This document shows, in pieces, positions 23,813-52,846 of a stretch of DNA of 64,000 nt. The position numbers were made by a program, and so were the translations under genes. Numbering within the stretch: the stretch's first letter is position 1; each line of letters starts with the position of its first letter. The notes beneath the pieces are model-generated. The model searched no databases, had not been told where the DNA came from, and worked only from the letters and a program-made list of their open reading frames with translations. The stretch is from Verrucomicrobiota bacterium. GTDB lineage: Bacteria; Verrucomicrobiota; Verrucomicrobiia; Limisphaerales; CANJSG01. Location of the stretch: the NCBI GenBank assembly GCA_038209745.1, contig JBBQXJ010000010.1, positions 9,209 to 73,208 on the forward strand. Reading direction: 5' to 3'.

Positions 23813-23895
23813 CATGCCCCGGATGGATCGAGTCCGGCATCCCGCACTTGAGCTTCACCGATTTCCCGCCAACTTGCCTCGCCAGCCAAAACGTC

Positions 23896-26535: not shown

Positions 26536-26546
26536 ACCCATTTGCC

Positions 26547-27416
26547 ATGAAACGCCGCCTCGCCCGCTTCGCCCTCTTCGCCGCCATCCTCGGCAGCGCT
26601 TGGTTGGCGGTTGCCCAATGGGGCGGCCCGCGCCGCGGCGGCGGCCTTCGATCCTTTCCCCAAGACTCGGGACGTCCCCCGCAATGGGAGAATCCCCAGG
26701 CCTTCAAGCGCGACGTCTTCACCTTTGCGCGCATCGAATACGACCACGGGGGCTACGGAGGACGCGGTGGCTGGGACACGGACTACGAAGGCTACGGTCA
26801 AGCCGAGCTGAACCTCGGGTTCCGCCTCCAGCAGATGACTTCGCTCAAGGTCGACGACCGCACCATGGGCAAGACGCTCCGTCTGACCGATAGGGAACTC
26901 GGCGACTATCCTTTCATCTACATCGTCGAGGCCGGCGCGCTCTATCTGGGCGACGACGAGGCCGCCGCGCTGCGCAAGCATCTGCTCAACGGCGGCTTCC
27001 TCATGATCGACGACTTCTGGGGGGAACCCGATTGGCGCAACATGGCGGATGAAGTGAAAAAAGCTTTCCCGGACAAGGAATGGATCGATCTCCCGGCGGA
27101 CCACCCGATCTTCAACGGCATCTTCAAACTGGATAAGACCAAGATCCAGACCCCCAACATCGGCCTCGGCATGCAGAGTCTGGATCCCGGCAGCGGCTAT
27201 TTCGGCGTCACGTGGGAACGCGAGGATGCGCGCGAGGTCCACTTCCGCGCCCTCTTCGACGACAAGGGCCGGATCATGGCGCTGGCCTGCCACAACACCG
27301 ACAACGGCGACGGCTGGGAACAGGAGGGCGCGGCCATCGAGTTCTTCCGCGAGTTCTCCGAGAAGAAGAACTACCCGCTCATGATCAACATCCTCTTCTA
27401 CACGATGACCCACTGA
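26547..27416 (+). CDS. DUF4159-domain exported protein (copy 1)
   Basis: Signal peptide; FTFARIEY, YPFIYIVE, NGGFLMIDDFWG and HNTDNGDGWE motifs. Confidence 0.88.
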   Translation: MKRRLARFALFAAILGSAWLAVAQWGGPRRGGGLRSFPQDSGRPPQWENPQAFKRDVFTFARIEYDHGGYGGRGGWDTDYEGYGQAELNLGFRLQQMTSLKVDDRTMGKTLRLTDRELGDYPFIYIVEAGALYLGDDEAAALRKHLLNGGFLMIDDFWGEPDWRNMADEVKKAFPDKEWIDLPADHPIFNGIFKLDKTKIQTPNIGLGMQSLDPGSGYFGVTWEREDAREVHFRALFDDKGRIMALACHNTDNGDGWEQEGAAIEFFREFSEKKNYPLMINILFYTMTH

Positions 27417-27452
27417 CCGGGGCCGTCCCACCCCCCCCGCCCCTACACCACT

Positions 27453-28367
27453 ATGAACGCGAAAAGCCGTTCCAGATTGTTGCTGAGCCTGCTCCTGCTG
27501 GCAGGCGGACTCTGTGCCGCCCAAGGCTGGAGACATCGGGGCTCCCGTGAAGGCGTCGTCTACACGGAGGACGGCGTGGCGGTGGACGAACACACCGTCA
27601 AGACGGCGCGCGAGGTCGCCAACCGCGGCTCCGGGGCGCCCATCTGGACCAACGCGCCGGGCCTGGAGCCGGACGTCTTCACCTTCGCCCGGATCATCCG
27701 CGACCGCTCCGACCACTGCTCCCCCACGGCGGGCGAATGGATCACCGATTTCCCGGACAGCGACCTGAACCTTTCCTACCGCCTCCAGCAACTGACCACG
27801 ATCAAGACCGATCCCAACGGCCGGACGCTTCGGCTGACCGACCCGGATCTCGTCCGTTATCCTTGGATCTACATGGTGGAGCCCGGCAGCTTGGAACTGC
27901 GCGACGAAGAGGTGCCCATTCTCCGGAACTACCTGTTGAACGGCGGGTTTCTGATGGTGGACGATTTCTGGGGCGAGGTGCAGTGGCGCACGTTCCAGGC
28001 GCAGATGAAACGCGTCTTCCCCGACCGCGACTTCGTGGAACTGCCGATGGACCATCCGATCTTCCACGCCGTGTTCCCCCTGGATGTTCCGAAGAACCAG
28101 CTGCAGATCCCGAACTTCCGCCAGGGCATCCGCAGCCAATATGACGGCGTGACCTGGGAGAACCATGACGGCGAAGAGTGCCGCGACGTCCACATCCGCG
28201 CGCTGAACGACGACCAGGGCCACATCATGGTCCTCGCCTGCCACAACACCGACAACGGCGACGGCTGGGAGCGCGAAGGCACGGACGAATACTTCTTCCG
28301 CCAGTTCTCGGAGAAACGCGCTTTCCCCCTCGCCATCAACATCGTCTTCTTCGCGATGACCCATTGA
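27453..28367 (+). CDS. DUF4159-domain exported protein (copy 2)
   Basis: Same motifs as copy 1; both end in MTH-stop. Confidence 0.88.
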   Translation: MNAKSRSRLLLSLLLLAGGLCAAQGWRHRGSREGVVYTEDGVAVDEHTVKTAREVANRGSGAPIWTNAPGLEPDVFTFARIIRDRSDHCSPTAGEWITDFPDSDLNLSYRLQQLTTIKTDPNGRTLRLTDPDLVRYPWIYMVEPGSLELRDEEVPILRNYLLNGGFLMVDDFWGEVQWRTFQAQMKRVFPDRDFVELPMDHPIFHAVFPLDVPKNQLQIPNFRQGIRSQYDGVTWENHDGEECRDVHIRALNDDQGHIMVLACHNTDNGDGWEREGTDEYFFRQFSEKRAFPLAINIVFFAMTH

Positions 28368-28447
28368 GCCCGAAATGATGTCCGCCGAGCCCCGTCGTTC
28401 GGAGTTGAATGTTCCCCGATGAGCGTTCGAAATTTCCCCCATTCACC

Positions 28448-29467
<1,020 letters not shown>

Positions 29468-29501
29468 ACACCCGCGGCGCGATCATCCGATCGCACGATC
29501 A

Positions 29502-29537
29502 ACGGGCGGGCGCCAAGAGCGGGCCCGTCCTTTTTTT
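29502..29537 (+). terminator. Possible terminator after MoxR
   Basis: acgggc...gcccgt arms followed by a T7 run. Confidence 0.4.
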
Positions 29538-29997
29538 GTCTCCCTTGCCAGGCTCGCCTTGTCCGAAATTGCGGGTATCCATCGGGCCAAGGATCGCCTC
29601 GACCTCGGCGGCTAGCCTCCTTTCCCGATTTCGCGAAGCGTCTCCGTCTCATCGGGTCTTGGCTGCCTGCGGCGGCCCTCTCGATTCGCAGTCGCCAGCC
29701 GCAACCAAGGGCGGGTGTTTTGAGGCACACCAAATCGCCGAGGATCCGTTCAACTTCAATCCACATCGCCCCCTTAGGTTCCATCTCTTGCGTGAATGGG
29801 GTCGGTTCATCCCGCAATCCGTCGGCGCGCTGGCCTTTTAGGGTGTGGGAGTTCCCTCGAAACCCCATGGGCATTGACTTTACTTGGCCCCAACCATCTC
29901 GGCGAAATCTGGGCAACACCATCACCGAAGGTGTTGCCGCGGCCCAAGTCCTCGTCCACGCTGAAAGCGCCCACACGTCCAAACCCGATTACCGATC

Positions 29998-30834
29998 ATG
30001 AATCAGACCGTCGTCCTCCAGACCCCCAACCGTCATGGCCGTGGTCGCCGCGGCTTCACTCTGATCGAGCTGCTGGTGGTCATCGCCATCATCGCCATCC
30101 TTGCGGGGATGCTCCTTCCGGCTCTGGCCAAGGCCAAGGCCAAGGGACTACAGACCGCCTGCCTGAACAACCTCCGGCAAATCGGCTTGGCGACCGTCAT
30201 GTATGTGAGCGATTTCGGCGTCTATCCCGGAAGTCTCTCGGTCAGCCCGCCGGTCTACGTCTGGCCGGTTCGCCTGCTCCCTTATGCCGGCGAAAACCGG
30301 AAGCTCTTCCATTGCCCGGCGGCCGATCCGAACAGCTCCTGGGACGAGACCCTCAACAACACCCTGGCCACCGCGACTCCTCCGGGTTTCTCGGCCCCGA
30401 TCAAATACGGCGTCACACCCAACAGCCGCTTCTCCTATGGCTACAACGACTGGGGCCTCAACATAGGAGCCTCTCCCCAGCTCGGTCTCGGAGGCGACAT
30501 CAACGGCGGAGCATTCCGGGGCTATGTCAAAGACACCTCCGTCAGAAACCCGTCGGACATGATCATGCTCGCCGACGGAAAAGGGGCCAAGACCAACCCC
30601 ACCTACAACGCCAGCATCGATCCGACCCAGGACGACCAATGGCCGGCCAACCGGCACAACCGCTTCACCGTGATCCAGTTTGCCGACGGCCACTCCGCCG
30701 CTGCCAAACGAAAAGAGGTCATTGATCCGACTCGGGACAATCCCTGGCGGAGAAGGTGGAACGCCGACAACGCGCTCCACAACGAGGTCACTTGGACTGT
30801 GAACGCGGCGTTGGAAGCCCGGATCGACCAGTGA
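29998..30834 (+). CDS. Prepilin-type N-terminal cleavage/methylation protein (DUF1559 / H-X9-DG C-terminus)
   Basis: [47 protein letters not shown]. Confidence 0.93.
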
Positions 30835-30994
30835 TCGGCAGACCGCGCGCCGGTTCAAAAGCCGGGCCGGATCATGGGCCGTCCCTGAGCCGGCCCGTTC
30901 GTTTGGACCTAGGTCCTTGCGGCAAGAATCCCACCCATCAGCCCGTCCGCAGGGCCCGCTTGATCCGGGAGCGATCGGACCACAACCAGCATCC

Positions 30995-32182
30995 ATGAGC
31001 ACCGCCCCGATTCCGGCAACCGAGGTCCATGATCCCGCCGAAACAGCACGCCGGCAGTTCACCGCCCGCTTCCGTCAACCTCCACGCTGGCTCGCCGCCG
31101 CACCCGGCCGCGTGAATCTCATCGGCGAACATACGGACTACAACGAAGGCTTCGTCCTGCCCATGGCCATCGACCGCGAGACGGTCGTCGCGGCCGCCCT
31201 CAACGGCCGGAACATCATCCGTCTCGAAACCTCGTTCGCCGACAAGCCTGTCGAGATCGATCCAGCCCGGCTGACACCCGGCTCCCACACCAGCTGGTCC
31301 GACTACGCCGCAGGGGTGATCGCCGGATTCCAGGCACTCGGCCCAAAGATCCCCGGTTTCGACGCGTTCGTGGATTCATCCGTTCCCGCCGGCGGCGGAC
31401 TTTCCAGCAGCGCCGCGCTCGAAGTCGCCACCGCCACGCTGCTTGAGGCCATCACCGGCCGATCGCTCGATCCGGTCGGGAAAGCGCTCCTCTGCCAGAA
31501 GGCGGAACACGACTACGTCGGCGTGCCCTGTGGCATCATGGATCAGATGGCTTCGGTCTGCGGACGCGAAGACCACCTCTTGCTCCTCGACTGCCGATCA
31601 CGTGAAACGCGCCTCGTCCCCTTCAACGATCCGTCCGTGGCCGTGCTCGTGATCAACACCAACGTCCGGCACGAGCTCTCCGGCGGCGAATATGCCCTGC
31701 GCCGAACCCAGTGTGAAACCGCCGCCCATGCGCTGGATGTCGCCTCCCTCCGCGACGTCACGGAGCCGATGCTGCTGGCCGGCCGGTCCAAGATGGACTC
31801 CACCACTTTCCGCCGCGCCCGCCACGTCGTCTCCGAGATCGCCCGAACGCTGAAGGCTGCTGACGCCGTGGCCGCCTCGCGTTGGGAAGAAGTCGGCCAG
31901 CTCATGCAGGCCAGCCACGCCTCGCTGCGTGACGACTACAAGGTCAGCTGTCCCGAGCTCGAAGTGGTCGTCGACCTGGCTTCCGCTCCAAAAATGAAAT
32001 CCAGCATCTATGGCTGCCGCATGACCGGCGGCGGCTTCGGCGGTTGCGCCATCGCCTTGGTCCGACGCGACGCGGCGGACGCCGTCTCAGCCTCGATCGC
32101 CACGGACTACCACAAGCGCACCGGCATCGAGCCGTCCCTCTTCCTCACCCGCCCCGGCGACGGCGCCCGCCTCCTGGCATGA
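30995..32182 (+). CDS. galK: Galactokinase
   Basis: APGRVNLIGEHTDYNEGFVLPMAI, GGGLSSSAALE, CGIMDQ and GCRMTGGGFGGC motifs. Confidence 0.97.
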   Translation: MSTAPIPATEVHDPAETARRQFTARFRQPPRWLAAAPGRVNLIGEHTDYNEGFVLPMAIDRETVVAAALNGRNIIRLETSFADKPVEIDPARLTPGSHTSWSDYAAGVIAGFQALGPKIPGFDAFVDSSVPAGGGLSSSAALEVATATLLEAITGRSLDPVGKALLCQKAEHDYVGVPCGIMDQMASVCGREDHLLLLDCRSRETRLVPFNDPSVAVLVINTNVRHELSGGEYALRRTQCETAAHALDVASLRDVTEPMLLAGRSKMDSTTFRRARHVVSEIARTLKAADAVAASRWEEVGQLMQASHASLRDDYKVSCPELEVVVDLASAPKMKSSIYGCRMTGGGFGGCAIALVRRDAADAVSASIATDYHKRTGIEPSLFLTRPGDGARLLA

Positions 32183-33696
32183 GCGGTGGAGCGTCAGCCC
32201 CGTTGCTCCGTATCGCCGATCTCTCCATCGCTTTCGGCCCGGTGAAGGCGCTCGACGGCGCAGGACTGACGCTGCGCGCCGGGGAGATCCACGCATTGAT
32301 GGGCGAAAACGGAGCGGGCAAATCGACGCTCATCAAGACCCTCACCGGCGTCTACGCTCCCGACTCCGGCCGGTTCGAGTTCGAAGGCCGCCCCGTCGCC
32401 CCGAAGTCGCCGCGCGACGCCGAAGCCATCGGCATCAGCACCGTCTATCAAGAGGTCAATCTCGTCCCCACGCTGTCCATCGCGGACAACATCCTGCTCG
32501 GCCGCCAGCCCACGCGCTTCGGCCTCCTGCGCAAGTCCCAGATCCGCCGCCGTGCCGAAGCCGCCCTTGGCCGTCTCGGACTCAAGCTCGACGCCAGCCG
32601 TTCGCTCTCATCCTGCTCCATGGCCGAACAGCAGATGGTGGCGATCGCCCGGGCGCTGGACGTGAAGGCCAAGCTGCTGATCCTCGATGAACCGACCTCA
32701 AGTCTCGACGAACGCGAGGTGGAATTCCTCTTTGGTGTGCTCCGCCGCCTTCGCGACGAAGGCGTCGCGATGCTCTTCGTCACCCATTTCCTCGACCAGG
32801 TCTACGCCGTCTCCGACCGCATCACCGTCCTCCGCAACGGCCGGTTCGTCGGCGAACATCCGATCGCCGAACTGCCGCGTCTCAAGCTGATCAGCGCGAT
32901 GCTCGGCCGGGAATTCGCCGAGATGCAGCACCTCGCCGAAAGCGCCCACAGCGCCGCGGCCGGTTCACGCGCACCGCTGCTCGAGGCCCGCCACATCAGC
33001 CACAAGGGCACGATGAATCCAGTCAGCCTCGACATCGCCGCCGGTGAAGTCACCGGGCTCGCCGGATTGCTCGGCTCCGGCCGCACCGAGACGGCCAAGA
33101 TGCTCTTCGGCGTCACGCCGACGCAGACGGGCGAGATCAAGCTGGGCGGCACCACGGTCAAGATCGCTTCGCCGCGCGACGCCATTCGGCTCGGCCTCGC
33201 CTTCTGCAGCGAGGACCGGAAGACCGAGGGCATTTTTCCGGACCTGTCCGTCCGCGAGAACATGGTCCTCGCCCTGCAGAGCCGCCGCGGGCCGTTGCGG
33301 CTGATGGCCCGCAAGGAGCAGGACACCATCGCCGACCACTACATCCGCGCGTTGCGGATCAAGACCGACAGTGCCGGGACGCCGATCAAGAACCTCTCCG
33401 GCGGCAACCAGCAGAAAGTGCTCCTGGGCCGTTGGCTCTCGCTGCAGCCCAGGCTGATCATCCTCGACGAACCCACGCGCGGCATCGACGTCGGCGCCAA
33501 GGCCGACATCGAGAAGCTCGTCCAGTCGCTGCGCGGCGAAGGGATGTCCGTTCTCTTCATCTCCTCGGACATCGAGGAAGTCGTCCGCAATTGCCAGCGC
33601 GTCGTCGTGCTGCGGGACCGCCGCAAGATCGGCGAACTGTCCGGCCCCGACGTCGAAGCCGGCCGCATCATGAATGTCATCGCCCATCATGAGTGA
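32179..33696 (+). CDS. ytfR: CUT2 sugar ABC transporter ATP-binding protein (YtfR-like)
   Basis: Two NBDs: GENGAGKST, ISTVYQEVNL, LDEPT, LSGGNQQKV; ATGA overlap with galK. Confidence 0.92.
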   Translation: MSGGASAPLLRIADLSIAFGPVKALDGAGLTLRAGEIHALMGENGAGKSTLIKTLTGVYAPDSGRFEFEGRPVAPKSPRDAEAIGISTVYQEVNLVPTLSIADNILLGRQPTRFGLLRKSQIRRRAEAALGRLGLKLDASRSLSSCSMAEQQMVAIARALDVKAKLLILDEPTSSLDEREVEFLFGVLRRLRDEGVAMLFVTHFLDQVYAVSDRITVLRNGRFVGEHPIAELPRLKLISAMLGREFAEMQHLAESAHSAAAGSRAPLLEARHISHKGTMNPVSLDIAAGEVTGLAGLLGSGRTETAKMLFGVTPTQTGEIKLGGTTVKIASPRDAIRLGLAFCSEDRKTEGIFPDLSVRENMVLALQSRRGPLRLMARKEQDTIADHYIRALRIKTDSAGTPIKNLSGGNQQKVLLGRWLSLQPRLIILDEPTRGIDVGAKADIEKLVQSLRGEGMSVLFISSDIEEVVRNCQRVVVLRDRRKIGELSGPDVEAGRIMNVIAHHE

Positions 33697-34704
33697 GCCC
33701 CTGGCCAGAGTCAGAGCCTGGTTCCAGGGAGGCACCCTGCTGTGGCCGCTTCTCGGTTTGGCCGCGCTGTTGGCCTTCAACCTCGTCTGGTCCCCCGGCT
33801 TCTTCAGCGTCGAGCTCCGCGAAGGCCATCTCTACGGCATCCTCGTCGACATCCTGAACCAGGGCTCGAAGGTCATGCTGCTCTCCATCGGCATGACGCT
33901 GGTCATCGCCTCGGGCGGCGTCGATCTGTCGGTCGGTTCCATCATGGCCATCGCCGGCGCGCTGGCGGCCGCGTTGGTCACGCGGACCGGATTGCCCTTC
34001 GTCGCGGTGGTTCCGATCACCCTGCTGGCAGCGCTGCTGGCCGGTTTCGGCAACGGCCTCCTCGTGGCCAAGGCCGGCATCCAGCCGATCATCGCCACCT
34101 TGATCCTGATGGTCGCCGGACGCGGCGTCGCCATGTTGATCACCGGCGGACAGATCCTCACCTTCGATCTGCCGGCCTTCGTCTATCTCGGCAACGGCCA
34201 CCTGTTCGGCCTGCCCTTCACGGTGACGATCGTCGCGGCCGTTCTCGCCATCTCAGTCTGGCTCACGCGCAGGACCGCTTGCGGCCTCTTCCTCGAAGCC
34301 GTGGGCGACAACGGACGCGCCGCGCGCTTCTGTGGCATCAACACCACCGCAGTGAAGCTCCTCGTCTATGCGGTCTCCGGACTCTGCGCCGGCATCGCCG
34401 GACTCATCGCCACTTCGAACATCAAGGCCGCCGACTCCAGCCGCGTCGGCGAGATGATGGAGCTGGACGCCATCTTCGCCGTCGTCGTCGGCGGGACCGC
34501 GTTGACGGGCGGACGCTTCTCGCTGGTGGGTTCGGTCCTCGGCGCGCTGCTCATCCAGACGCTCACCACCACCATGCAGAACCTCGGCGTGCCGCCCGCG
34601 ATTTCGCCCGTGCCCAAGTCCATCGTCATCGTCGCCGTCTGCCTCCTGCAATCGGCCAAGTTCCGCGGGCAGATCGGCGGTCTGTGGAAGGGAAAGGCCC
34701 GGCC

Positions 34705-34708
<4 letters not shown>
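33689..34708 (+). CDS. ytfT: Sugar ABC transporter permease (YtfT-like)
   Basis: GMTLVIASGGVDLSVG, IQPIIATLILMVAGRG and ELDAI motifs. Confidence 0.9.
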
Positions 34709-35682
<974 letters not shown>

Positions 35683-35689
35683 CTCTCCC

Positions 35690-37933
35690 ATGAAACGACG
35701 CCGTTCTTCTCTCCGACACTGGGCCGCTTTGTTCGCAAGCGCGGTGCCGCTCCTGGCCTTTGCGGCAGAGGCGTGGCAACCGGCCAAAGGCCCTTTGAAT
35801 ACCCGCTGGGCGGCGGCCGTTTCGCCGGAGAACGCGCTGCCCGAATATCCGCGTCCGCAAATGGTCCGGCATGATTGGCTCAATCTGAACGGCCTTTGGG
35901 ACTATGCCCTGACCGCGCACGCCGCCGCCGCGCCCACGACCTTTGGCGATCACATTCTCGTTCCCTTCGCCTATGAGTCGTCCCTCTCCGGCGTCGGCAA
36001 GCCGAGCGTGCCCGACCAGCGCCTGTGGTATCGGCGCGGCTTCACCGTGCCGGCGAAGTGGCGCGGCCAGCGCGTGATCCTGCACCTCGGCGCGGTGACG
36101 TGGGACTCGTCGGTTCTCGTCAACGGCAAGGCCATCGGCACCCATCGCGGCGGATACACCGCCTTCGAGTTCGACATCACCGACAGCCTCAAAGCCGGCA
36201 ACAACGAACTCGTCGTCTCCGCCTGGAACCCCCTCCGCTCCGACTTGGCCGACGCCCAGGTGCTCGGTAAACAGCGCAAAAAGCCCGAGGCCATCTTCTA
36301 CACCGCAGCCAGCGGCATCTGGCAGACCGTCTGGCTGGAACCCGTCTCCGCCGCCCACATCGACGCCCTCCGGATGACGCCCGACATCGACGCCAAGGCT
36401 CTCAGACTCACCGTCCAGTCCGGTCAGATCGCGCAGGTCAGGGTGACCGCGTTCGACGGCTCCAAGGAAGTCGCCAGCATCACCGGCACCGCTGGCCAGG
36501 AGCTCAGCCTTCCGATCACGAACCCCCGTCTCTGGACGCCGAGCGACCCTCATCTCTACAGCCTCAAAGTGGCGCTGCTCCAGAACGGCAAGGAAACCGA
36601 CGCCGTGGACAGTTACTTCGCCATGCGGAAGATCTCGCTCGGACAGGACGCGCAGGGCCGCACCCGCATGTTCCTGAACAACGCGTTCCTCTTCGAGATC
36701 GGCCCTCTCGACCAGGGCTACTGGCCGGACGGCATCTACACCGCCCCGACCGACGACGCCCTTCGCTACGACATCGAGGTCACCAAGCAGCTCGGGTTCA
36801 ACATGACCCGCAAGCACGCCAAGGTGGAACCCGACCGCTGGTATTACTGGACCGACAAGCTCGGCCTGCTCGTCTGGCAGGATATGCCCCAGATGTTCGG
36901 CGGCCGCGACAACACCCTCACGGCCGGAGCCAAGGCGCAGTTCGAAAAGGAATGGCGCGAAGAGCTCGCCCAGTTGCACAACCACCCCTCGATCGTCGTC
37001 TGGACTCCCTTCAACGAAGGCTGGGGCCAGCACGACACGGAAGCCGTCGTCGCCTTGACCAAACAACTGGATCCGAGCCGCCTCGTGAACAACGCCAGCG
37101 GCTGGACCGACATGAAGTGCGGCGACCTCCACGACACCCACGCCTATCCCGGGCCCGGATGCGAACTGCCCGAGCCCCATCGCGCGTCGGTCAACGGCGA
37201 GTTCGGCGGCGTGACCATGAGCCTCCCCGGCCACCGCTGGAACGACGACGCCTTCGGCTACGGCGCGGTGCTGAAGGATTCCTGGCTCGCGACCAAGCGC
37301 TACCAGGCGCTCCTCGAGAACGTCTACAAGCTGCGCGACGAACGGGGCATGAGCGCCGCCGTCTACACCCAGATCACCGACGTCGAACAGGAGATCAACG
37401 GCCTGCTCACCTACGACCGGGCGATGATCAAGCTGGACGAGAAGATCGTCACCGCCGCGAACAAAGGTAAATTCCTCCCGCTGCCGCCGAACCCCAACCC
37501 GCCCATCGTCCCCTCCTCCCAGGACGAGCCCCAGACCTGGCGCTACACCACGGAGAAACCGGCCGGCGACTGGATGAAGCCCGGCTTCGCCGACACGACC
37601 TGGAAGCCGGCACCGGGCGGATTCGGCCACGACGTCGGTCCCATCCAGACGCAGTGGACCACGTCCGACATCTGGATCCGCCGCATCGTCGAGCTGACCG
37701 CCGACCTGCCGGCCGAGCTGGCCTTCGAGTGCTTCCACGACGAGGACGCCGAAATCTATCTGAACGGCGTGCTCGCCGCGTCGCCCAGGGACTACAACCA
37801 CGCGTACGAGACGATCCCGATGAACGCCGCAGGCCGCGCCGCCTTGAAGGGCGGTCCGAACGTCATCGCCGTCCATTGCCACCAGACCATCGGCGGCCAG
37901 TTCATCGACGTCGGCATCGTGAAGGCGAAGTGA
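35690..37933 (+). CDS. Secreted GH2 glycoside hydrolase, beta-galactofuranosidase-like
   Basis: Signal peptide; PEYPRPQ..WLNLNGLWDY, LDQGYWPDGIYTAP, RKHAKVEP, WQDMP, FNEGWGQ and GEFGG motifs. Confidence 0.88.
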   Translation: MKRRRSSLRHWAALFASAVPLLAFAAEAWQPAKGPLNTRWAAAVSPENALPEYPRPQMVRHDWLNLNGLWDYALTAHAAAAPTTFGDHILVPFAYESSLSGVGKPSVPDQRLWYRRGFTVPAKWRGQRVILHLGAVTWDSSVLVNGKAIGTHRGGYTAFEFDITDSLKAGNNELVVSAWNPLRSDLADAQVLGKQRKKPEAIFYTAASGIWQTVWLEPVSAAHIDALRMTPDIDAKALRLTVQSGQIAQVRVTAFDGSKEVASITGTAGQELSLPITNPRLWTPSDPHLYSLKVALLQNGKETDAVDSYFAMRKISLGQDAQGRTRMFLNNAFLFEIGPLDQGYWPDGIYTAPTDDALRYDIEVTKQLGFNMTRKHAKVEPDRWYYWTDKLGLLVWQDMPQMFGGRDNTLTAGAKAQFEKEWREELAQLHNHPSIVVWTPFNEGWGQHDTEAVVALTKQLDPSRLVNNASGWTDMKCGDLHDTHAYPGPGCELPEPHRASVNGEFGGVTMSLPGHRWNDDAFGYGAVLKDSWLATKRYQALLENVYKLRDERGMSAAVYTQITDVEQEINGLLTYDRAMIKLDEKIVTAANKGKFLPLPPNPNPPIVPSSQDEPQTWRYTTEKPAGDWMKPGFADTTWKPAPGGFGHDVGPIQTQWTTSDIWIRRIVELTADLPAELAFECFHDEDAEIYLNGVLAASPRDYNHAYETIPMNAAGRAALKGGPNVIAVHCHQTIGGQFIDVGIVKAK

Positions 37934-37934
37934 C

Positions 37935-39074
37935 ATGAATCCCCGCCGTCCTCCACGCCGCCCCGGTTTCCTCGCAGCACTCGCGCTCGCGCTGTTTTTT
38001 ACGTTGGCCGGGCAGGCGGTCGGAGCGGCTGCGGATGATGCTGTTCCCTCCGTAGCGGCGGGGTCTGCTCCAGACACCTTCCACTGGTCCAATCCGATCC
38101 GCGTGCAGGACGGGATACCCGGCGACGAGCTGCGCGACCCGTGCATCGTCCGCGAAGGCGACACCTACTATCTCGTCTTCACCGTTTTCCCGTTTCGCGG
38201 CCGCGATGAGAACCACCTCGGCGATCCCGACCAGGGCTCGTCGCCCGGCATCAAGCTCTATCGCTCGCGGGATCTCGCGAACTGGACCTTCGACCGCTGG
38301 CTGGTGAAGGGCTCCGAACTGCCGGACAACTGTCCGTATCGCCACCGTTTCTGGGCTCCGGAGATCCACAAGATGGGCGGCAAGTTCTACCTCGTCTTCA
38401 CCGCCGACAACTGGTCGAAGAAGGAACACAACCCCGCCGGCACCTGGGGCGCGGCCGGCTATGCGTTCGTCGGCGTGGCGGACCAGGTGACCGGACCCTA
38501 CGAGCACATCAGCTACATTCCCGGCGCGGCCTGCGACACGACGCTGTTCGAGGACACCGACGGCCGCACCTACGCCTTCATTCCCCGCTACAACATCGAC
38601 GTGCAGGAGATCGACCTGACCGGCCTGGCGCGTGGCGAGGTGAAGCTGCTGGGCCAGCCCGTGAAGATCCTCACGCCGGACAACGCGGATGTCGGTCTCG
38701 CGACCAAGGCGGACTACCTCGAAGGCCCGTGGGTCCGGAAGATCGGCGACCGCTACTGTCTCTTCTACGCCTCGCTCTATTCGAAGAAGAACAACGCGGA
38801 CGGCGGCGACGGCTACTGGGCCGGCGTGGCCTACGCCGATCGGGTGACGGGACCGTTCCAGAAAGACCCGCGCGCGAAGGTCTTCCTCGGCGGCCATCTC
38901 GCGGTCTTCGACGATCCGTCCGGCGGCGCGTGGTTTTCCTATCGCGGCGAAAGCGGCGGTCCGGCCCAGGGCCGGCTTTGTGTCGAGCCGATCAGCCTGG
39001 ATGCCTCGGGCCGCGTGCGCGTCGCCGGACCGACGACCGGCCCACGAACCCTTTCCCTCCACCGTACAAAATGA
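37935..39074 (+). CDS. Secreted GH43 glycoside hydrolase
   Basis: Signal peptide; LRDP, WAPE, D.TLF and LEGP catalytic motifs. Confidence 0.88.
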   Translation: MNPRRPPRRPGFLAALALALFFTLAGQAVGAAADDAVPSVAAGSAPDTFHWSNPIRVQDGIPGDELRDPCIVREGDTYYLVFTVFPFRGRDENHLGDPDQGSSPGIKLYRSRDLANWTFDRWLVKGSELPDNCPYRHRFWAPEIHKMGGKFYLVFTADNWSKKEHNPAGTWGAAGYAFVGVADQVTGPYEHISYIPGAACDTTLFEDTDGRTYAFIPRYNIDVQEIDLTGLARGEVKLLGQPVKILTPDNADVGLATKADYLEGPWVRKIGDRYCLFYASLYSKKNNADGGDGYWAGVAYADRVTGPFQKDPRAKVFLGGHLAVFDDPSGGAWFSYRGESGGPAQGRLCVEPISLDASGRVRVAGPTTGPRTLSLHRTK

Positions 39075-39119
39075 TAGCTATCGACGATCCTTGTTTCCGA
39101 AAAGCATGACCCCATCTCC

Positions 39120-40103
39120 ATGAAGACTCCCCATTGGCGTTTGCCCATCAACTCTCTCGTCGCCGGCCTCGTCGGCTTCACCCTCTTGACCGCTTGCGGC
39201 GACAAGAGCGGCAGCAGCGCCTCTCCCGGCGGCAAGATCACCGTCGGCTTCGCCCAGGTCGGAGCCGAGAGCGCCTGGCGCACGGCCGAGACCGCGTCGA
39301 TCAAGGACGAGGCCGCGAAGCGCGGCGTGAACCTCAAGTTCTCCGACGCCCAGGGCAAACAGGAGAACCAGATCAAGGCCGTCCGGGGCTTCATCGCCCA
39401 AGGGGTCGACGCCATCATCATGGCGCCCGTCGTGGAGACCGGTTGGGAACCCGTCCTGAAGGAAGCCAAGCAGGCCAAGATCCCCGTGATCCTCGTCGAC
39501 CGCGGCATCAAGACCGAAGACGAGTCGCTCTTCGCCACGTTGATCGCCTCCGACTTTGTCGCCGAAGGGCGCATGGCCGCCGAGTGGCTGATCAAGAAGA
39601 CCGGCGGCAAGGCCAGCATCATCGAGCTCCAGGGCACGCCCGGCGCCGCGCCGGCCATCGACCGCAGGAAGGGTTTTGAAGACGGCATCTCCAGCCATCC
39701 CGACATGAAGATCATCGCCTCGCAGAGCGGCGACTTCCGTCGCTCCGGAGGCAAGGAGGTGACCGAAGCGGTGCTCAAGGGCGCCGGCGCCGGCGCGACC
39801 GTCGTCTACGCCCACAACGACGACATGGCCCTCGGCGCCGTCCAGGCCATCGAGGAGTCCGGCAAGAAGCCCGGCACCGACGTGATCGTCCTCTCCATCG
39901 ACGGCGTGAAAGACGCCTTCGTCGCCATGGCCGCCGGCAAGCTGAACTGCACCGTCGAATGCAATCCCCTCCTCGGCCCCGCCGCGTTCGACGCCGTCGA
40001 GAAGGCGCTCAAGGGCGAGCAACTGCCAAAGAAGACCGTCGTCCAGGACAAGGTCTACGACGCCTCGAGCGCCGCCGCCGAGCTGCCGAACCGCAAATAT
40101 TGA
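39120..40103 (+). CDS. ytfQ: Sugar ABC substrate-binding lipoprotein (YtfQ-like)
   Basis: Lipobox LTAC; GFAQVGAESAWR..ET, KQENQIKAVRGFIAQGVDAI..PVVETGWEPVLKEAK and HNDDMA motifs. Confidence 0.92.
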   Translation: MKTPHWRLPINSLVAGLVGFTLLTACGDKSGSSASPGGKITVGFAQVGAESAWRTAETASIKDEAAKRGVNLKFSDAQGKQENQIKAVRGFIAQGVDAIIMAPVVETGWEPVLKEAKQAKIPVILVDRGIKTEDESLFATLIASDFVAEGRMAAEWLIKKTGGKASIIELQGTPGAAPAIDRRKGFEDGISSHPDMKIIASQSGDFRRSGGKEVTEAVLKGAGAGATVVYAHNDDMALGAVQAIEESGKKPGTDVIVLSIDGVKDAFVAMAAGKLNCTVECNPLLGPAAFDAVEKALKGEQLPKKTVVQDKVYDASSAAAELPNRKY

Positions 40104-40127
40104 GGCCTTTCTTCAGCCCTCCCGTCG

Positions 40128-41729
40128 ATGAAGCTCCCGCTCGTCTCCGCAATCGCCGTCGCTCTCCTGGCAGGCTGCAGCGCTCCGTCTCAACCAGCCC
40201 GGTACTCCAACCCCGTCATCCTCGGCGACCACGCCGATCCGTCGGTCATCCGGGTTGGCAAGACGTTTTGGGCCACGGCGACTTCCTCGGAATGGGGACC
40301 GCAGTTTCCGTTGCTGCGTTCGACCGACCTCGTGAATTGGGAGAACACCGGACCGGTCTTCAACAAGCGCCCCGGGTGGTCCGTGGCGAACTACTGGGCG
40401 CCGGAGATCTCGCACTGGGGCAGCCGCTACTACGTCTTCTACACGGGCCGCAAACCGGACGGTCCACTCGCCCTTGCCGTCGCGTCGGCCGACAAACCCG
40501 AGGGCCCCTACACCGACCACGGCCCGCTGGTGGCCCAGGACGCCGGCTCGATCGACGGCATGTTGATCGGCGACGAACAGGGCACGCCCTACCTCGTCTG
40601 GAAGGAAGACGGCAACAGCCGGGGCAAACCCACGCCCATCTGGGCGCAGCCGTTCGATCCTGCGGTCAACAAACTCGTGGGCGAGCCCAGGGAGATTCTG
40701 CGCAACGACGTTCCGTGGGAGGGCAACCTCGTCGAGGGCCCGTTCATCCTGAAGCGCGGGGAATGGTTCTACGCGTTCTACTCGGGAGCCGGCTGCTGCG
40801 GCAGCGGCTGCACCTACGGCCTCGGCGTCGCCCGTTCCAAGACGCTCCTCGGCCCATGGGAAAAGAATCCCGCCAACCCGATCCTCGCGGGCAACGACGC
40901 CTGGCGTTGCCCCGGCCACGGAAGCATCGTCGATGACGGATCCGGACGGTATTGGCTGCTCTACCACGCCTACGCGCAGGACACCTTCGTCTACACGGGC
41001 CGCGAAGCGCTGCTCGACGAAGTGGTCTTCAACGACCCCGGCTGGCCAACGATCAATGGCGGCAAAGGCCCTTCGTCCACCGCTGCTTCCCCTTTCAGCC
41101 AGAAGCAACATCGAACGGAACTCGCCTATTCCGATTCGTTCTCCAACAGGCGGCTCGATCGCGGATGGCAATGGCCCGTCGACGCCGAACCCGTCGTTAA
41201 ACTCGATCCGTCCGGCGGCGGCCGTCTCCGGCTGTCACCGGCGAGTGACCAGAACCAGGCCGAAGTCGGCGCCGTGCTCGGCCGATCCTTGGTGACCGGC
41301 GACTTCACCGCCACGACGATCCTCCGCACCACCGGCCTCGCGCCCGGCACCCGCGCCGGATTGGCCGCCATCGGAGATCGCGGCAACGCCGTCGGACTCG
41401 CTCTCGGCCATGGCCAGCTGCTGCTCTGGCAACGCGAACGCGGCCAAACCAAGTCGGTCGAATCCCGTCCGGCACCGTCCGGCGAACGCCTCTTCATCCG
41501 CGCGTTGGCGACCTCCGGCCATCTCTTCCATTTCTCCTACAGCTCCGACGGCACCGCGTGGACCGGGATCGGCCACGGGTTGAACGGCGGTTACCTGCCC
41601 CCGTGGGATCGCAGCGTCCGCATCGGTCTCACCGTCGGCGGAGGCCCGTTGGCCGTCGGCGACTTCGAATCGTTCAACATCGTTCCGCAGAACAGACGCG
41701 GAGACTTCAATCCGTCCGAGACCCCATGA
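40128..41729 (+). CDS. GH43 lipoprotein with C-terminal beta-sandwich
   Basis: Lipobox LAGC; HADPS, YWAPE, SIDG, VEGP and PGHGS motifs. Confidence 0.9.
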
Positions 41730-42781
41730 GCGACTCTCCCTTGTTCTCCCCGGAAGTTCATCCCCACCGCCGCTACAATCCGCTGACGGGAGAATGGATC
41801 CTCGTCTCGCCGCACCGCACCCAGCGTCCCTGGCAGGGCCAGCAGGAAACCATGAACGCCGAACGCCAGCCGGCGCACGATCCGACCTGCTATCTATGCC
41901 CCGGCAACCATCGCGCCGGCAGCGGGATCAACCCGCCCTACACCGACACGTTTGTTTTCCAGAACGACTTCGCCGCGCTCCTGCCCGACACCCCGTCGAT
42001 CGACAAGACGCGGTCGGATCTCTTCCGCACCGAACCGGTGAAGGGCGAGTGCCGCGTCATCTGCTTTTCGCCCCGGCACGACTTGACGCTCCCCGAAATG
42101 TCCGTCGAACAGATCGGCCGCGTGGTCGACGTCTGGGCCGAACAAACCGGGGAGCTCGGCCAAAAATATCGCTGGGTCCAAGTGTTCGAAAACAAAGGCG
42201 CGGTCATGGGTTGCTCAAACCCTCATCCCCACGGCCAGGTCTGGGCCGGCAATTTCCTGCCCCGCACCGCCGAACTCGAAGAAGTCGCCCAGCGCAACTA
42301 CCACCATTGGCACGGGCGTTCCCTGCTCCTCGACTACGCCGACGCCGAGACCCGCGACGGCACCCGGGTCATCGAGCAAAATCCGCACTGGCTCGTGGTC
42401 GTGCCCTATTGGGCCACCTGGCCCTTTGAGCTGCTCTTGATTCCACGTTGGCCCGTCAAACGCCTGACCGACCTGAAACCCGAGCAGCGCGCGTCCCTCT
42501 CCTCGATCCTGAAAGCCAGCCTCATCCGCTACGACAATCTCTTCTCCACGTCGTTCCCCTACTCCATGGGCTGGCATGGCGCCCCGACCGACGACGGCAG
42601 CTACGACCACTGGCAGCTCCACGCTCATTTCTATCCGCCGCTCCTCCGGTCCGCGACGGTCAAGAAGTTCATGGTCGGCTACGAAATGCTGGCCGAACCC
42701 CAGCGCGACCTGACTCCCGAACAAGCGGCCCAGCGCCTCAGAGCCCTCCCAGAAGCTCATTACCTCGGGAACCGCCGATAA
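41726..42781 (+). CDS. galT: UDP-glucose--hexose-1-phosphate uridylyltransferase
   Basis: [35 protein letters not shown] and [10 protein letters not shown] motifs. Confidence 0.97.
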
Positions 42782-42980
42782 TCTCAAGCCGGGCTGCAAT
42801 CCACGGCAGAACATGTGGAAAAACCTCAGGACGACGGGTCACGAACGAAAAGGAAAAGCGCGGAAATTTCGCCGGCGCGCTCGAACATCGGGGTCAGGCT
42901 GGGGTGTTTGACCCGCCACCACGACCGTCCAATGGATCGGCCCAACGGGAAATCCCATCCTTTAACCAGCACGCCCCAAG

Positions 42981-43070
42981 TGGCGGAAGGGGAGGGATTT
43001 GAACCCCCGGTAGCCTTGCGACTACGCCTGATTTCGAGTCAGGTGCCTTCGACCACTCAGCCACCCTTCC
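42981..43070 (-). tRNA. tRNA-Ser(CGA)
   Basis: GGAAGGG acceptor arm; CCTGA-CT-CGA-AA-TCAGG anticodon arm; long variable arm; GGTTCAAATCC T-arm; encoded CCA. Confidence 0.97.
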
Positions 43071-43256
43071 GCTGCTCGGGGCTGATGGCTTACGCCAAGT
43101 CGCGGCAGCGTGCAATCGATTATTCGGTTCCACCTTCAGTCGCGCCCGGGCTGTCTGCGGCCCCGGGGAGGACCGATCCAACGAGATGCCACCTTGGGAC
43201 TTGGATCCACGGCCGGCTTCGATTATTTCCATCTTCCACAAACCGAAGATCCAATT

Positions 43257-43979
43257 ATGGGTGCCCAATGGAAACAGAAAGGCCGTGAGATCGAAGCCCA
43301 GAAAAAGGGCCAGTTGATCGGCAAACTCGTCCGCGAACTCATCGTCGCCGCCAAGCTCGGCGGGGCGGATCCGGACCTCAACGCCCGTTTGGCGGCCGCC
43401 GTCGAGAAGGCGAAGAAGTCCTCCGTGACCCGCGACACGATCGACCGCGCGATCAAGAAGGGCTCCGGCCAGACGGACGAGAAGGTGGAGTTCGAGCACA
43501 TCACCTTCGAGGGCTTTGCCCCGCACAAGGTTCCGGTGATCGTGGAATGCGTGACGGACAACCGGAACCGCACCGCGCCGGAGATCCGCAATCTCTTCAA
43601 GGCCGGCGCGCTCGGCGCACCCGGCAGCGTGAACTTTTTCTTCGACCATCTCGGCGTCGTCGAGGCGACCCACACCGACAAGTCCCGCGATCCTGAAGGC
43701 GACGCCATCGAAGCGGGAGCGCAGGAGGTCGAAGCGCTCGAAGCGGAGGAAACAGCCGAGGGCGGTCTCGGAGCGCGGTTTCTGACGGAGCCGAAAGAGC
43801 TCGGTGCGGTCTCCAAGTGGCTCAAGGCCGCCGGCTGGAAGATCACCGCGTCGGAAATGCGCTATCAGGCGAAAAATTCCACGGAAGTGTCCGCCGACCA
43901 GCGCGAAGAAGTCGTGGCGTTCCTGACCCAGCTCGACGACCACGAAGACGTGCACCACGTCTTCGCCGGGCTGAAGTAG
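43257..43979 (+). CDS. yebC: YebC/PmpR (TACO1) family protein
   Basis: DPDLNARL, IDRAIKKG, VECVTDNRNRT and LDDHEDVHHVF motifs. Confidence 0.93.
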   Translation: MGAQWKQKGREIEAQKKGQLIGKLVRELIVAAKLGGADPDLNARLAAAVEKAKKSSVTRDTIDRAIKKGSGQTDEKVEFEHITFEGFAPHKVPVIVECVTDNRNRTAPEIRNLFKAGALGAPGSVNFFFDHLGVVEATHTDKSRDPEGDAIEAGAQEVEALEAEETAEGGLGARFLTEPKELGAVSKWLKAAGWKITASEMRYQAKNSTEVSADQREEVVAFLTQLDDHEDVHHVFAGLK

Positions 43980-51296: not shown

Positions 51297-51318
51297 CCCG
51301 TTGTGCCAACACAACGGG
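51297..51318. terminator. Hairpin between convergent transporter genes
   Basis: cccgttgtg-ccaa-cacaacggg perfect 9-bp stem; weak U tail. Confidence 0.45.
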
Positions 51319-51320
51319 AA

Positions 51321-52700
51321 TCAGTGGCTAAACTCCAGTTCACTCTCCGGCAAAGGTTGGTCCTTCGTCTCGGGAGCAAACGGCAACACAGCTAGCCCCA
51401 ACAAGAAGACAACGCACATGCTCAGCCCCGCGTAGCGCAAGGGCTCCTCCGTTCCATTGAACACCCGGCTGCTGAGCAATCCCAGCGTCCAAGGGCCCGA
51501 CGCGGCGAAAAAGCGGCCGACGTTGTAGCAAAAAGACGTCCCCGTGCTCCGGAGATGCGTCGGAAACAGCTCAGGAAAGTAGATCGCGTAGCCCCCGAAG
51601 ATCCCGAACATGAAGAAGCCCATGACGGGCACCAGCACGTAGACGTGCCACGGATCCCTAAGGAACCAAAAAACTGCGGCCGTCGAAATCATGGCACCGA
51701 TGAAGGCCACTGCAAAAGCCCTCCGTCGACTTGTCCTTTGCGTAAATTTGGTGAACGCCAACATCCCGAGAAACGCCCCGATGTTCAGCATCAAGGCTGC
51801 CTTGCCCTTCCACTGCCCGGCAGCCCCCTTCAAATCGATCCCCGTCAGCCCCTCGGCTGCAAGCCGCTTTTCCATGACGGAAGCGACTAGATCAAAACTG
51901 AAGAAAACGATTCCCCACAGGGCAATCACGCCCGCACACGCGAGAACAAGTCCCACGATCGCGTTGTGCCGCCAACGGGCATCCCGGAAAAGCGCGCGAT
52001 AAGATCCTGTGTCCTTGCCCAATCCGCCGGACGCCTTCATCCGCATCCAACGCTCGGGCTCCTTCAATCGCCAACGGATCAAAAGCGCCAACATTGCCGG
52101 AATGGCGCCAATTAGGAACATGATCCGCCATTTGACCCATGATTCGGGCATTCCACCTGTCCGTTGCCAGGTGCTCAAGCCCATTTCGATCAGAGCCGCC
52201 GCCACGTTCCCCACCGCCGAAAGGGCCTGCAACAGCCCAAGCGCATACGGTCGCGCCCGGGCAGGCATAACCTCGGCCACCAGAGCCACTCCAACCGCGA
52301 ACTCCCCACCCACACCAAGGCCAGTCAAGAAACGATAGAACGAAAAATCCCAAAACCCTTTCGACAGCGAACTCAAGCCGGTGCAGAGCGAATAGATCAA
52401 AATGGTGATCATCATCGTCTTTGCCCTTCCGATCCGGTCTCCCAATACCCCAAAAATAAGCCCGCCGGTAGCCCAGCCCAGAATGAAGATCGCCGTCACG
52501 TAGCCGGCATACTCATTCACGTCCGTGCCCGCAGGCAGGAGATCCCTCATGGCCGGAATGCGAGCCATGAGAAACAACTGCTGGTCCAGACAATCGAAAA
52601 GCCACCCAAGCGCCGCGACCAAAAGAACGAACCAATGGTAGCGGGACAACCCGTGCCACCAAGGCAATCGCGGAACGAAAGAATCAGTCGAAGACTTCAT
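51321..52700 (-). CDS. MFS transporter
   Basis: LGWLFD; G.LGDRIGR motif A; GVGGEF; PELFPT..RSTG; PETK. Confidence 0.93.
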   Translation of the reverse strand: MKSSTDSFVPRLPWWHGLSRYHWFVLLVAALGWLFDCLDQQLFLMARIPAMRDLLPAGTDVNEYAGYVTAIFILGWATGGLIFGVLGDRIGRAKTMMITILIYSLCTGLSSLSKGFWDFSFYRFLTGLGVGGEFAVGVALVAEVMPARARPYALGLLQALSAVGNVAAALIEMGLSTWQRTGGMPESWVKWRIMFLIGAIPAMLALLIRWRLKEPERWMRMKASGGLGKDTGSYRALFRDARWRHNAIVGLVLACAGVIALWGIVFFSFDLVASVMEKRLAAEGLTGIDLKGAAGQWKGKAALMLNIGAFLGMLAFTKFTQRTSRRRAFAVAFIGAMISTAAVFWFLRDPWHVYVLVPVMGFFMFGIFGGYAIYFPELFPTHLRSTGTSFCYNVGRFFAASGPWTLGLLSSRVFNGTEEPLRYAGLSMCVVFLLGLAVLPFAPETKDQPLPESELEFSH

Positions 52701-52788
52701 GATACAATTTTCCAAGCGCTAACATCGACACCGCAATGGAATTCCAAAACGAGCAAGCCCACTCCAGAATGATCCGAAATCGAAACGC

Positions 52789-52816: not shown

Positions 52817-52846
52817 CTTAATGAATCTAATCTTAACAAATGTAAA

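Follow-up and report, generated by a model that had tools for sequence, protein, structure and literature searches.

Known systems

To our knowledge, the natural recycling of D-galactofuranose (Galf) is poorly understood. Mammals and plants do not synthesise the sugar, whereas fungi, mycobacteria, protozoa, and many Gram-negative bacteria do, according to the accessible part of the paper on the Streptomyces galactofuranosidase (Galf-ase) ORF1110 (PMC11627007). The present analysis concerns a 64,000-nucleotide (nt) stretch of a verrucomicrobial genome (contig JBBQXJ010000010.1 of assembly GCA_038209745.1, positions 9,209 to 73,208; hereafter the window). Nine co-oriented genes at window positions 30995-42781, namely galK, four genes of a Gaf/YtfQ-type ATP-binding cassette (ABC) transporter, one gene of glycoside hydrolase family GH2, two of family GH43, and galT, would, with a probability of roughly 0.7, represent an operon-like locus scavenging Galf from foreign glycans. 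Possible sources include galactomannan and glycoproteins of fungi, galactan of actinobacteria, and Galf-containing lipopolysaccharide or exopolysaccharide.

The Escherichia coli transporter YtfQ-YtfR-YtfT-YjfF has the same four components, and its substrate-binding protein (SBP) shows the same WR...E motif and Asp as the SBP of the window (Arg38 and Asp111 in E. coli). In the window, however, the SBP gene follows the permease genes, with two hydrolase genes in between, the SBP carries a lipobox, and the genes lie between galK and galT, whereas the E. coli Gaf system is unlinked to related catabolic genes, according to the accessible text of a 2023 study of the GafA family (PMC10191376). GafABCD of Shewanella sp. 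ANA-3, described in the same text, shares with the window locus a common logic of exported furanosidases, furanose uptake by a Gaf system, and catabolic genes in the cluster (PMC10191376). Its sugar, however, is L-arabinofuranose (Araf), its catabolic genes are araBAD, and its Phe40 is suggested by the authors to block Galf, in contrast to galK/galT and a Glu in the window (PMC10191376). As far as the main text of that study is accessible, its authors report gaf clusters as often linked to arabinan or arabinose genes, and none as linked to D-galactose catabolic genes (PMC10191376).

ORF1110 and the GH2 enzyme of the window share a GH2 core of three domains, the two catalytic Glu, and every Galf-binding residue named in the accessible text; Streptomyces homologues are 45-48% identical to the window enzyme. 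The C-terminus is a CBM42 module in ORF1110 and a beta-sandwich resembling GH2-N domains in the window enzyme, where two Mg ligands are also replaced. As for neighbours of the ORF1110 gene, the accessible part of its paper names a second, adjoining GH2 gene and no other (PMC11627007). Unlike the Streptomyces gene, the window gene belongs to a Gram-negative host and stands in an operon-like block with an importer.

The classical gal operon of E. coli is galETKM, with galK and galT side by side. The window encodes members of the same GalK and GalT families, but galE and galM lie elsewhere in the genome, and galK and galT bracket the transporter and hydrolase genes. Galactan loci of the PULDB type import via SusC/D. 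Those of Bacteroides finegoldii, which are catalogued in PULDB, are multi-enzyme loci that depolymerise Galf-glycans and include GH43 enzymes like the window locus, according to the accessible part of their description (PMC10115798), whereas the window locus couples ABC import to Leloir genes.

Full-text literature searches, which cover few subscription journals, returned no published operon of Galf-ase, transporter, and Leloir genes, nor any Gaf transporter tied to galactose catabolism. All parts of the locus are known families; the novelty lies in how they are combined, in the conservation of this combination within a single verrucomicrobial order, and in the dichotomy between galactose- and arabinose-linked loci. 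The Gaf/YtfQ transporter has lacked a clear catabolic context, and the locus with its relatives links release, import, and the Leloir pathway in one putative operon. The window locus also fits the reported enrichment of Galf transporters and galactokinase in fungus-associated bacteria (PMC12023794).

Organization of the locus

The window lies on contig C10 of a 4.58-Mb genome assembled in 140 contigs, with an estimated completeness of 92%, and its GC content is ~65% up to roughly 50 kb. N_methyl/DUF1559 genes in the neighbourhood are consistent with a bacterium of the PVC group. Each of the nine genes has an ATG start and a stop codon at the following limits.

30995..32182, + strand: galK, galactokinase (cytoplasmic; Leloir step 1); TIGR00131, Pfam GalKase_gal_bdg, GHMP_kinases_N, and GHMP_kinases_C.
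32179..33696, + strand: gafB/ytfR-type ABC ATPase with two ABC domains; YtfR_transport is the best NCBIfam match, Pfam ABC_tran in two stretches.
33674..34708, + strand: gafC/ytfT-type permease; YtfT_transport is the best NCBIfam match, Pfam BPD_transp_2.
34705..35682, + strand: gafD/yjfF-type permease; NCBIfam PRK11618 (YjfF).
35690..37933, + strand: secreted GH2, probable exo-beta-D-galactofuranosidase; three GH2 domains and a match to ORF1110.
37935..39074, + strand: GH43a, secreted single-domain GH43, candidate Galf-active partner of GH2; Pfam Glyco_hydro_43.
39120..40103, + strand: gafA/ytfQ-type furanose-binding lipoprotein (the SBP), cluster-B type, lipobox LTAC; YtfQ is the best NCBIfam match, with matches in the Protein Data Bank (PDB).
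40128..41729, + strand: GH43b, lipoprotein (lipobox LAGC) with GH43 and GH43_C2 domains by Pfam, candidate beta-D-galactofuranosidase.
41726..42781, + strand: galT, galactose-1-phosphate uridylyltransferase (Leloir step 2); PRK11720 and TIGR00209.

The gaps from galK to galT are, in order, −4, −23, −4, +7, +1, +45, +24, and −4 nt. An earlier note on this DNA had described nine co-oriented genes with overlaps or gaps of at most 45 nt between 30995 and 42781, and all limits match (−23 to +45 nt); its assignments (galK, ABC ATPase, two permeases, GH2, GH43, lipoprotein, GH43, and galT) are upheld gene by gene by Pfam and NCBIfam. Read by eye, the N-termini of GH2 and GH43a resemble signal peptides and those of the SBP and GH43b contain the lipoboxes, suggesting export, while GalK and GalT show neither feature.

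The junction between yjfF and GH2 is spanned by independent Logan contigs from other sediment or soil runs (X1 record 4, X13 record 11, X18 record 29), and that between GH43a and the SBP by a further one (X13 record 14), while a single X1 contig extends from GH2 to galT (35920-42432). The runs containing the stretch are labelled as sediment or soil metagenomes. Because the junctions recur in separate assemblies of other runs, the gene order is real and not an assembly artefact; and since variants of the gene set recur in 23 of the 46 GafA loci examined in the same order, the arrangement goes beyond chance. Together with the start/stop overlaps at four gene pairs, these observations make it highly improbable that unrelated genes were juxtaposed by chance or mis-assembled, an explanation that could otherwise appeal to the absence of the block from all 6 congeneric genomes searched, to the four runs placed on the stretch being DNA contigs with no RNA run listed for 33000-42800, and to a promoter and terminator scan of 29400-43300, in which the 2 promoter-like and 10 terminator-like sites do not exceed shuffled controls (the consensus may not suit the phylum).

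Transporter and binding protein

According to NCBIfam, the YtfR, YtfT, YjfF, and YtfQ models are the top matches of the four transporter subunits by wide margins. The ABC ATPase scores 668.4 bits with YtfR_transport (runner-up AraG, 504), the first permease 309.4 bits with YtfT_transport (runner-up ribose permease, 183), the second permease 391.2 bits with PRK11618 (YjfF; cut-off 363), and the SBP 392.4 bits with the YtfQ model, MglB reaching only 41. Among PDB entries (phmmer), the SBP matches GafA of Mycobacterium smegmatis (6HBD, 6HBM, and 6HB0; E = 3e-101), the protein of Shewanella sp. ANA-3 (5OCP; 4.4e-101), and E. coli YtfQ (2VK2; 5.9e-96), with ribose-binding proteins as the next-best family (3.5e-43).

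Residues W53-R54 and D127 of the SBP align in 2VK2, 5OCP, and 6HBD with the residues that correspond to Arg38, the adjacent Trp, and Asp111 of E. coli, and the accessible text on the family states that this Arg/Asp pair enlarges the pocket for a furanose (PMC10191376). E57 falls on the site of Shewanella Phe40, where E. coli YtfQ also has Glu. According to the same text, GafA proteins bind furanoses: D-Galf and L-Araf are both ligands of the E. coli, S. meliloti, and M. smegmatis proteins, whereas that of Shewanella takes L-Araf only, and the authors suggest that Phe40 blocks the conserved Asp from yielding to the longer sugar (PMC10191376). Because Glu57, and not Phe, occupies this site, the SBP of the window is not of the arabinose-only type. 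The transporter is, on these alignments, of the GafABCD/YtfQRT-YjfF type and is predicted to bind the furanose form of galactose.

GH2 enzyme

The GH2 enzyme matches 7SF2, an uncharacterised Bacteroides cellulosilyticus protein, with E = 2.5e-176 and the ORF1110 structures 9J6N/9J6M with 1.9e-173. Its homologue family is large (8000 scored matches, all with E of 1e-50 or better). The accessible part of the ORF1110 paper describes that enzyme as strictly Galf-specific, being inactive on the p-nitrophenyl (pNP) substrates pNP-alpha-L-Araf and pNP-beta-D-galactopyranoside (pNP-beta-Galp), with E464 as acid/base and E530 as nucleophile (PMC11627007). It gives the sugar contacts as N463 for O2, H401 and K212 for O3, Y551 and E594 for O5, and K212, Y228, and E594 for O6; the O5/O6 network (K212, Y228, Y551, and E594) tells Galf from Araf (PMC11627007). 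Mapped by hand on the PDB-match alignment (chain index + 23 = ORF1110 number), K212, Y228, H401, N463, E464, E530, Y551, and E594 correspond to K194, Y204, H376, N442, E443, E504, Y524, and E568 of the window enzyme. Across 20 aligned homologues none of the eight varies, and neither does D398, the counterpart of ORF1110 D423. Based on these residues, the enzyme is a probable exo-beta-D-galactofuranosidase.

The canonical galK and galT would equally suit an ordinary galactopyranose or beta-galactoside operon, with GH2 as a beta-galactosidase and the ABC transporter importing galactopyranose; the few source-named GH2 homologues, including close ones, are called beta-galactosidase or GH2, and NCBIfam reports weak GalA- and LacZ-type matches. 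True beta-galactosidases, however, match the enzyme at E of only ~1e-24 compared with 1.9e-173 for ORF1110, which is itself inactive on pNP-beta-Galp according to the accessible text (PMC11627007), and the SBP scores 392 bits with the YtfQ model vs 41 with MglB, so that this explanation is considered very unlikely.

At its C-terminus the enzyme has an additional module.

~37478-37930, + strand: GH2 C-terminal beta-sandwich module of ~150 residues; predicted structure, no Pfam match.

The AlphaFold2 (AF2) model of this module has a predicted confidence (pLDDT) of 94.8, and its nearest Foldseek matches are whole GH2 enzyme chains (TMq ~0.6); in our reading of the model, it resembles the N-terminal sugar-binding domains of GH2 enzymes. 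Second copies stand apart from the GH2 C-terminus in four other loci (L021:21530-21964, L026:10163-10582, L032:987-1373, and L080:7802-8197), and for this reason it is probably a mobile carbohydrate-binding module.

Gaf loci in other genomes

In a search of 300 other genomes from the order of the window's host, a GafA orthologue turned up in 54, and 46 of the loci were fetched and scored by tblastn (identity of at least 40%, coverage of at least 50%). GH43b is present in 15 of them, galK in 12, galT in 8, galK and/or galT in 15, both in 5, an ORF1110-type GH2 in 7, and GH43a in none; 23 loci have at least one of the scored features. These counts are lower bounds because many contigs end within the locus. 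Related genomes are not independent, and by family label the GH43b linkage occurs in 9 families and the galK linkage in 8. The full layout galK-ytfR-ytfT-yjfF-gafA-GH43b-galT is found in five other genomes (L101, L132, L138, L139, and L142), and partial linkage to galK or galT in 10 further loci, so that a galactose module split around transport and hydrolase genes, which had been called unusual, is instead typical of the lineage. In L100, L130, L134, L135, and L152 the GH2 gene stands at the 5' end.

At the Phe40 site, 42 of the 46 order loci have Glu and 4 have Asn (L155, L167, L168, and L169). In the wider phylum, where GafA was found in 25 of 400 other genomes and 20 loci were fetched (mostly in the E. 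coli order, with the SBP gene first), 16 loci have Asn, 3 have Ser, and 1 has Glu at this position. None of the 66 verrucomicrobial GafA loci has Phe there. Arabinose genes were sought with Pfam on 96 neighbouring open reading frames and with tblastn using araA, araB, and araD from those loci. They adjoin 3 of the 4 Asn-type order loci (L155, L167, and L169) and 4 of the 20 wider-phylum loci (L111, L113, L114, and L119), all Asn-type, but none of the 42 Glu-type order loci. In contrast, galactose genes adjoin 15 of the 42 Glu-type loci and no Asn-type locus, and none were found in the 20 wider-phylum loci. From this opposite linkage it follows that one lineage holds two Gaf systems, the window locus being of the galactose-tied kind. 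The accessible text of the 2023 GafA paper, which treats Phe40, does not discuss the split between Glu and Asn (PMC10191376). As a natural contrast, the two kinds of loci make the sugar selectivity of GafA directly testable.

Some of the relatives' loci contain further genes. A regulator of AraC type with a periplasmic-binding-like sensor domain is divergent from galK in L132 (15665-16918), a 62% identical one lies just before GH2 in L130 (at ~2169), and a plain HTH_AraC protein is divergent from GH2 in L135 (2689-3594). In L142 a galE-like epimerase gene follows galT (11564-12544). The window locus has no such regulator or epimerase.

Among 80 loci with homologues of the GH2 gene from many phyla, a CUT2-type ABC importer adjoins GH2 in 20, of which 16 are from actinomycetes (SBP 37-42% identical) and 4 from other lineages (44-66%); galK, galT, GH43a, and GH43b were not found within 10 kb in any of the 80. 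The 16 actinomycete loci (Streptomyces, Lentzea, Amycolatopsis, and others; L033, L047, L049, L051, L054-L059, L061, L066, L070, L078, L081, and L090) encode a four-gene CUT2 importer whose SBP has Phe for the Trp of the WR motif (NPFR). This importer is a candidate Galf uptake system, which goes unmentioned in the accessible parts of the ORF1110 papers.

GH43 enzymes

Both GH43 proteins score well above the Glyco_hydro_43 cut-off of 32.2 bits: GH43a with 124 bits (E = 9.8e-36), and GH43b with 236.1 bits (6.7e-70) and an additional GH43_C2 match (7.4e-12). Residues D68, D201, and E263 of GH43a, invariant in 26 sequences, align with D14, D127, and E186 of 3C2U, which we take to be the catalytic Asp base, the Asp pKa modulator, and the Glu acid; the AF2 model of GH43a shows the usual GH43 propeller. 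The DPS, ID, and EGP motifs of GH43b align with 6MS3. With 3QZ4, a solved GH43_34 member, GH43b has E = 1.4e-10, and GH43a has 17% identity (Foldseek rank 43). According to the accessible parts of the literature, activity on pNP-Galf occurs in subfamilies GH43_30, _31, _32 (one enzyme from the verrucomicrobium Opitutus terrae), _34, and _37 (PMC6442616), a review table adds GH43_3 and GH43_8 (PMC12290620), and a GH43_31 enzyme hydrolyses corynebacterial galactan together with a novel exo-Galf-ase (PMC10115798).

The GH43b family has more than 3000 proteins, which the sources call beta-xylosidase; members that are named belong to Verrucomicrobia, Acidobacteria, and Methylomirabilota. The 300 other order genomes include 42 with a GH43b gene; at least 36 of these 42 also encode GafA, which overall is found in 54 of the 300. 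In the wider-phylum sample the GH43b gene is present in 1 of 400 genomes. Of 18 further copies, 6 directly follow ytfR-ytfT-yjfF, 1 follows galK, 1 has a GH2 gene (65% identical) 7 kb away, and 10 are without any gene of the operon. Of the hydrolases, GH43b shows the most constant linkage to Glu-type Gaf loci, and a furanose-releasing role is proposed for it because of this conserved linkage; within galactose-type loci, the sugar would most simply be Galf.

The GH43a family is smaller (308 matches at E of 1e-20 or better), and the window locus is the only one among the Gaf loci to have a member, with none in the relatives' 46. At least 11 of 67 metagenome loci with GH43a homologues carry an adjoining GH2 gene whose product is 35-45% identical to the window GH2. 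Five of these 11 have the full Galf signature, 2 differ by D398E only, 3 have Thr for Y524, and 1 (L204) is nonconforming. The recurrent pairing with ORF1110-type GH2 genes makes GH43a a candidate Galf-active enzyme. As a separate observation, one GH43a homologue (among P0251, P0303, and P0353) is fused to GH2-N-type domains.

The earlier note had proposed all three hydrolases as Galf-ase candidates. For GH2 this holds at the level of residues; for GH43b the proposal draws on conserved linkage, and for GH43a on the recurrent pairing with GH2, the roles of both resting on gene context. Two large uncharacterised GH43 lineages are thereby nominated as Galf-ase candidates, and Galf-ases have uses in glycan analysis and in diagnostic tests for Aspergillus galactomannan.

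Proposed pathway and its alternatives

The Leloir genes of the locus are canonical. GalK scores 344.5 bits with TIGR00131 (cut-off 226.65) and contains the motifs GEHTDYNEG and PAGGGLSSS, and GalT scores 572.5 bits with PRK11720 (cut-off 448) and 535.1 with TIGR00209 and contains the HPH motif. Elsewhere in the genome, on other contigs, there are one galE and three galM-like aldose 1-epimerase genes. In the 92%-complete genome, UDP-galactopyranose mutase was not found, so that the organism probably makes no Galf itself and the sugar would be foreign. Neither araA (Pfam family search and tblastn) nor araD (tblastn) was found in it, and arabinose therefore has no classical sink.

The following pathway is proposed from what was directly observed, namely the order of the genes, the families they belong to, their conserved residues, and their conserved linkage. 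The nine genes would be co-transcribed. GH2, GH43a, and the lipoprotein GH43b would be exported and release free Galf outside the cytoplasm. The lipid-anchored SBP would catch the sugar while still in the furanose form, ahead of relaxation to the pyranose, and pass it to YtfR and YtfT/YjfF. In the cytoplasm the ring would open and reclose to alpha-D-galactopyranose, spontaneously or with the help of one of the three aldose 1-epimerases. GalK would then form galactose-1-phosphate, GalT would exchange it with UDP-glucose, and GalE, encoded on another contig, would close the Leloir cycle. The sequence of release, import, and activation suggested earlier is supported by the Galf-binding residues of GH2, the Gaf-type transporter, canonical galK and galT, and the linkage of Glu with galactose and of Asn with arabinose genes. 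As had been noticed, galM and galE are missing from the locus; it is not fully "self-contained", as galE, the mutarotase candidates, and any regulator lie outside it.

Several observations weigh against the Galf reading. Among the four transporter proteins, only YjfF passes its NCBIfam equivalog cut-off; the other three fall short of theirs (850 bits for the ATPase, 535 for the first permease, and 510 for the SBP). The SBP alone does not fix the sugar, since GafA of E. coli and of M. smegmatis binds L-Araf as well. Two Mg ligands of ORF1110, D157 and D201, are replaced in the window GH2 by T137 and N180 (the latter invariant in the closest clade of homologues), the third, Q213, being kept as Q195; in ORF1110, D201A lowered the activity to 15.5%, according to the accessible text (PMC11627007). 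The closest solved relatives of both GH43 enzymes, at ~20-30% identity, are xylosidases and arabinofuranosidases (phmmer against the PDB, and Foldseek for GH43a). Classical GH43 activities are those of alpha-L-arabinofuranosidase or beta-xylosidase. Among the structural neighbours, 4QQS is identified as an arabinofuranosidase from the literature. Two GH43a homologues (among P0251, P0303, and P0353) are fused to a GH53 domain (beta-1,4-galactanase), and in L248 the cluster ytfR-ytfT-yjfF-GH43b (50% identical) adjoins a PL11 rhamnogalacturonan lyase gene, which hints at plant pectin side chains. Finally, no regulator, outer-membrane uptake component, or mutarotase was found within the locus, and RNA runs are missing as described above.

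The GH43 relatives, the GH53 fusions, and the PL11 lyase would all fit a locus for plant arabinogalactan or pectin side chains, in which the GH43 enzymes would act as alpha-L-arabinofuranosidases, the importer would take mainly L-Araf (perhaps Galf), and galK and galT would handle galactose from the same polymer; binding of L-Araf by GafA proteins and the many gaf clusters with arabinan or arabinose genes, as given in the accessible text (PMC10191376), point in the same direction. The missing araA and araD are at odds with it, as are the arabinose genes, which adjoin Asn-type loci yet none of the 42 Glu-type ones, the retention in GH2 of the ORF1110 residues for O5 and O6 of Galf, and the bracketing of the locus by galK and galT. 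On balance, such a plant-glycan locus is judged unlikely, and scavenging of Galf is preferred.

A broader proposal is put forward tentatively: soil and sediment Verrucomicrobia of this order might hold a dedicated Galf regulon with a Glu-type GafA specialised for Galf, a sister of the Asn-type Araf system, and GH43a and GH43b might be new lineages of beta-D-galactofuranosidases, exo- or endo-acting. If so, the more than 3000 proteins that currently carry a beta-xylosidase annotation would be represented by GH43b, and much of the "xylosidase" in soil metagenomes would be machinery consuming Galf-glycans of fungi and bacteria.

Origin of the arrangement

According to a quick maximum-likelihood tree of GH2 proteins, with support given by SH-aLRT only, the window GH2 falls within a clade of 60-73% identical homologues (support 100), while the GH2 proteins encoded in Gaf loci of the relatives fall into two separate clades (both 100) and those adjoining GH43a homologues form a sister clade (85). 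As the window GH2 is in a different clade from those of the relatives' Gaf loci, ORF1110-type GH2 genes have joined Gaf loci more than once. The core layout galK-gafBCD-gafA-GH43b-galT is typical of the order, and GH2-GH43a looks like a separately recruited two-gene module inserted between yjfF and gafA of that layout.

GafA and GH43b were not found in the 6 congeneric genomes searched. Upstream of the locus, a block of TPR-peptidase, two DUF4159, and MoxR genes (window 23848-29467) is kept in four contigs from four congeners, where neither the operon nor the genes downstream of it follow MoxR, PPK2 being on other contigs. This pattern, together with a tRNA gene right after galT, would fit a gain of the operon at a synteny break.

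Neighbouring genes and other observations

Two features adjoin the block.

29998..30834, + strand: prepilin-like gene with N_methyl and DUF1559 domains by Pfam, a possible accessory gene outside the nine.
42981..43070, − strand: tRNA-Ser(CGA), 3' boundary of the block, by ARAGORN.

The DUF1559 gene (N_methyl, E = 2.1e-9; DUF1559, 9.2e-8) precedes galK with a spacing of 160 nt. Within the same genome the closest paralogue reaches 29% identity, and orthologues with 47-57% identity adjoin Gaf genes in five other loci, mostly of one family (L104:6417-7229, L131:14101-14934, L154:7469-8350, L158:2808-3692, and L240:9808-10692). By this linkage, it may belong to the Gaf system as a surface or secretion accessory.

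A second, divergent galT is located on contig C14 (G000:C14:3048-6393, locus L170), scores 267 bits with TIGR00209, and is 36% identical to the galT of the operon. It adjoins a gene for a 594-residue GHMP kinase with weak similarity to galactokinase, and the pair is a possible second hexose-1-phosphate pathway.

As for the rest of the window, the GC content of the final 12 kb (51300-64000) is 0.47-0.53, down from ~0.63, and a gene on the − strand at 15640-20103 encodes a 1487-residue protein with the glycogen-debranching domains GDE_N and GDE_C and amylase-like domains.

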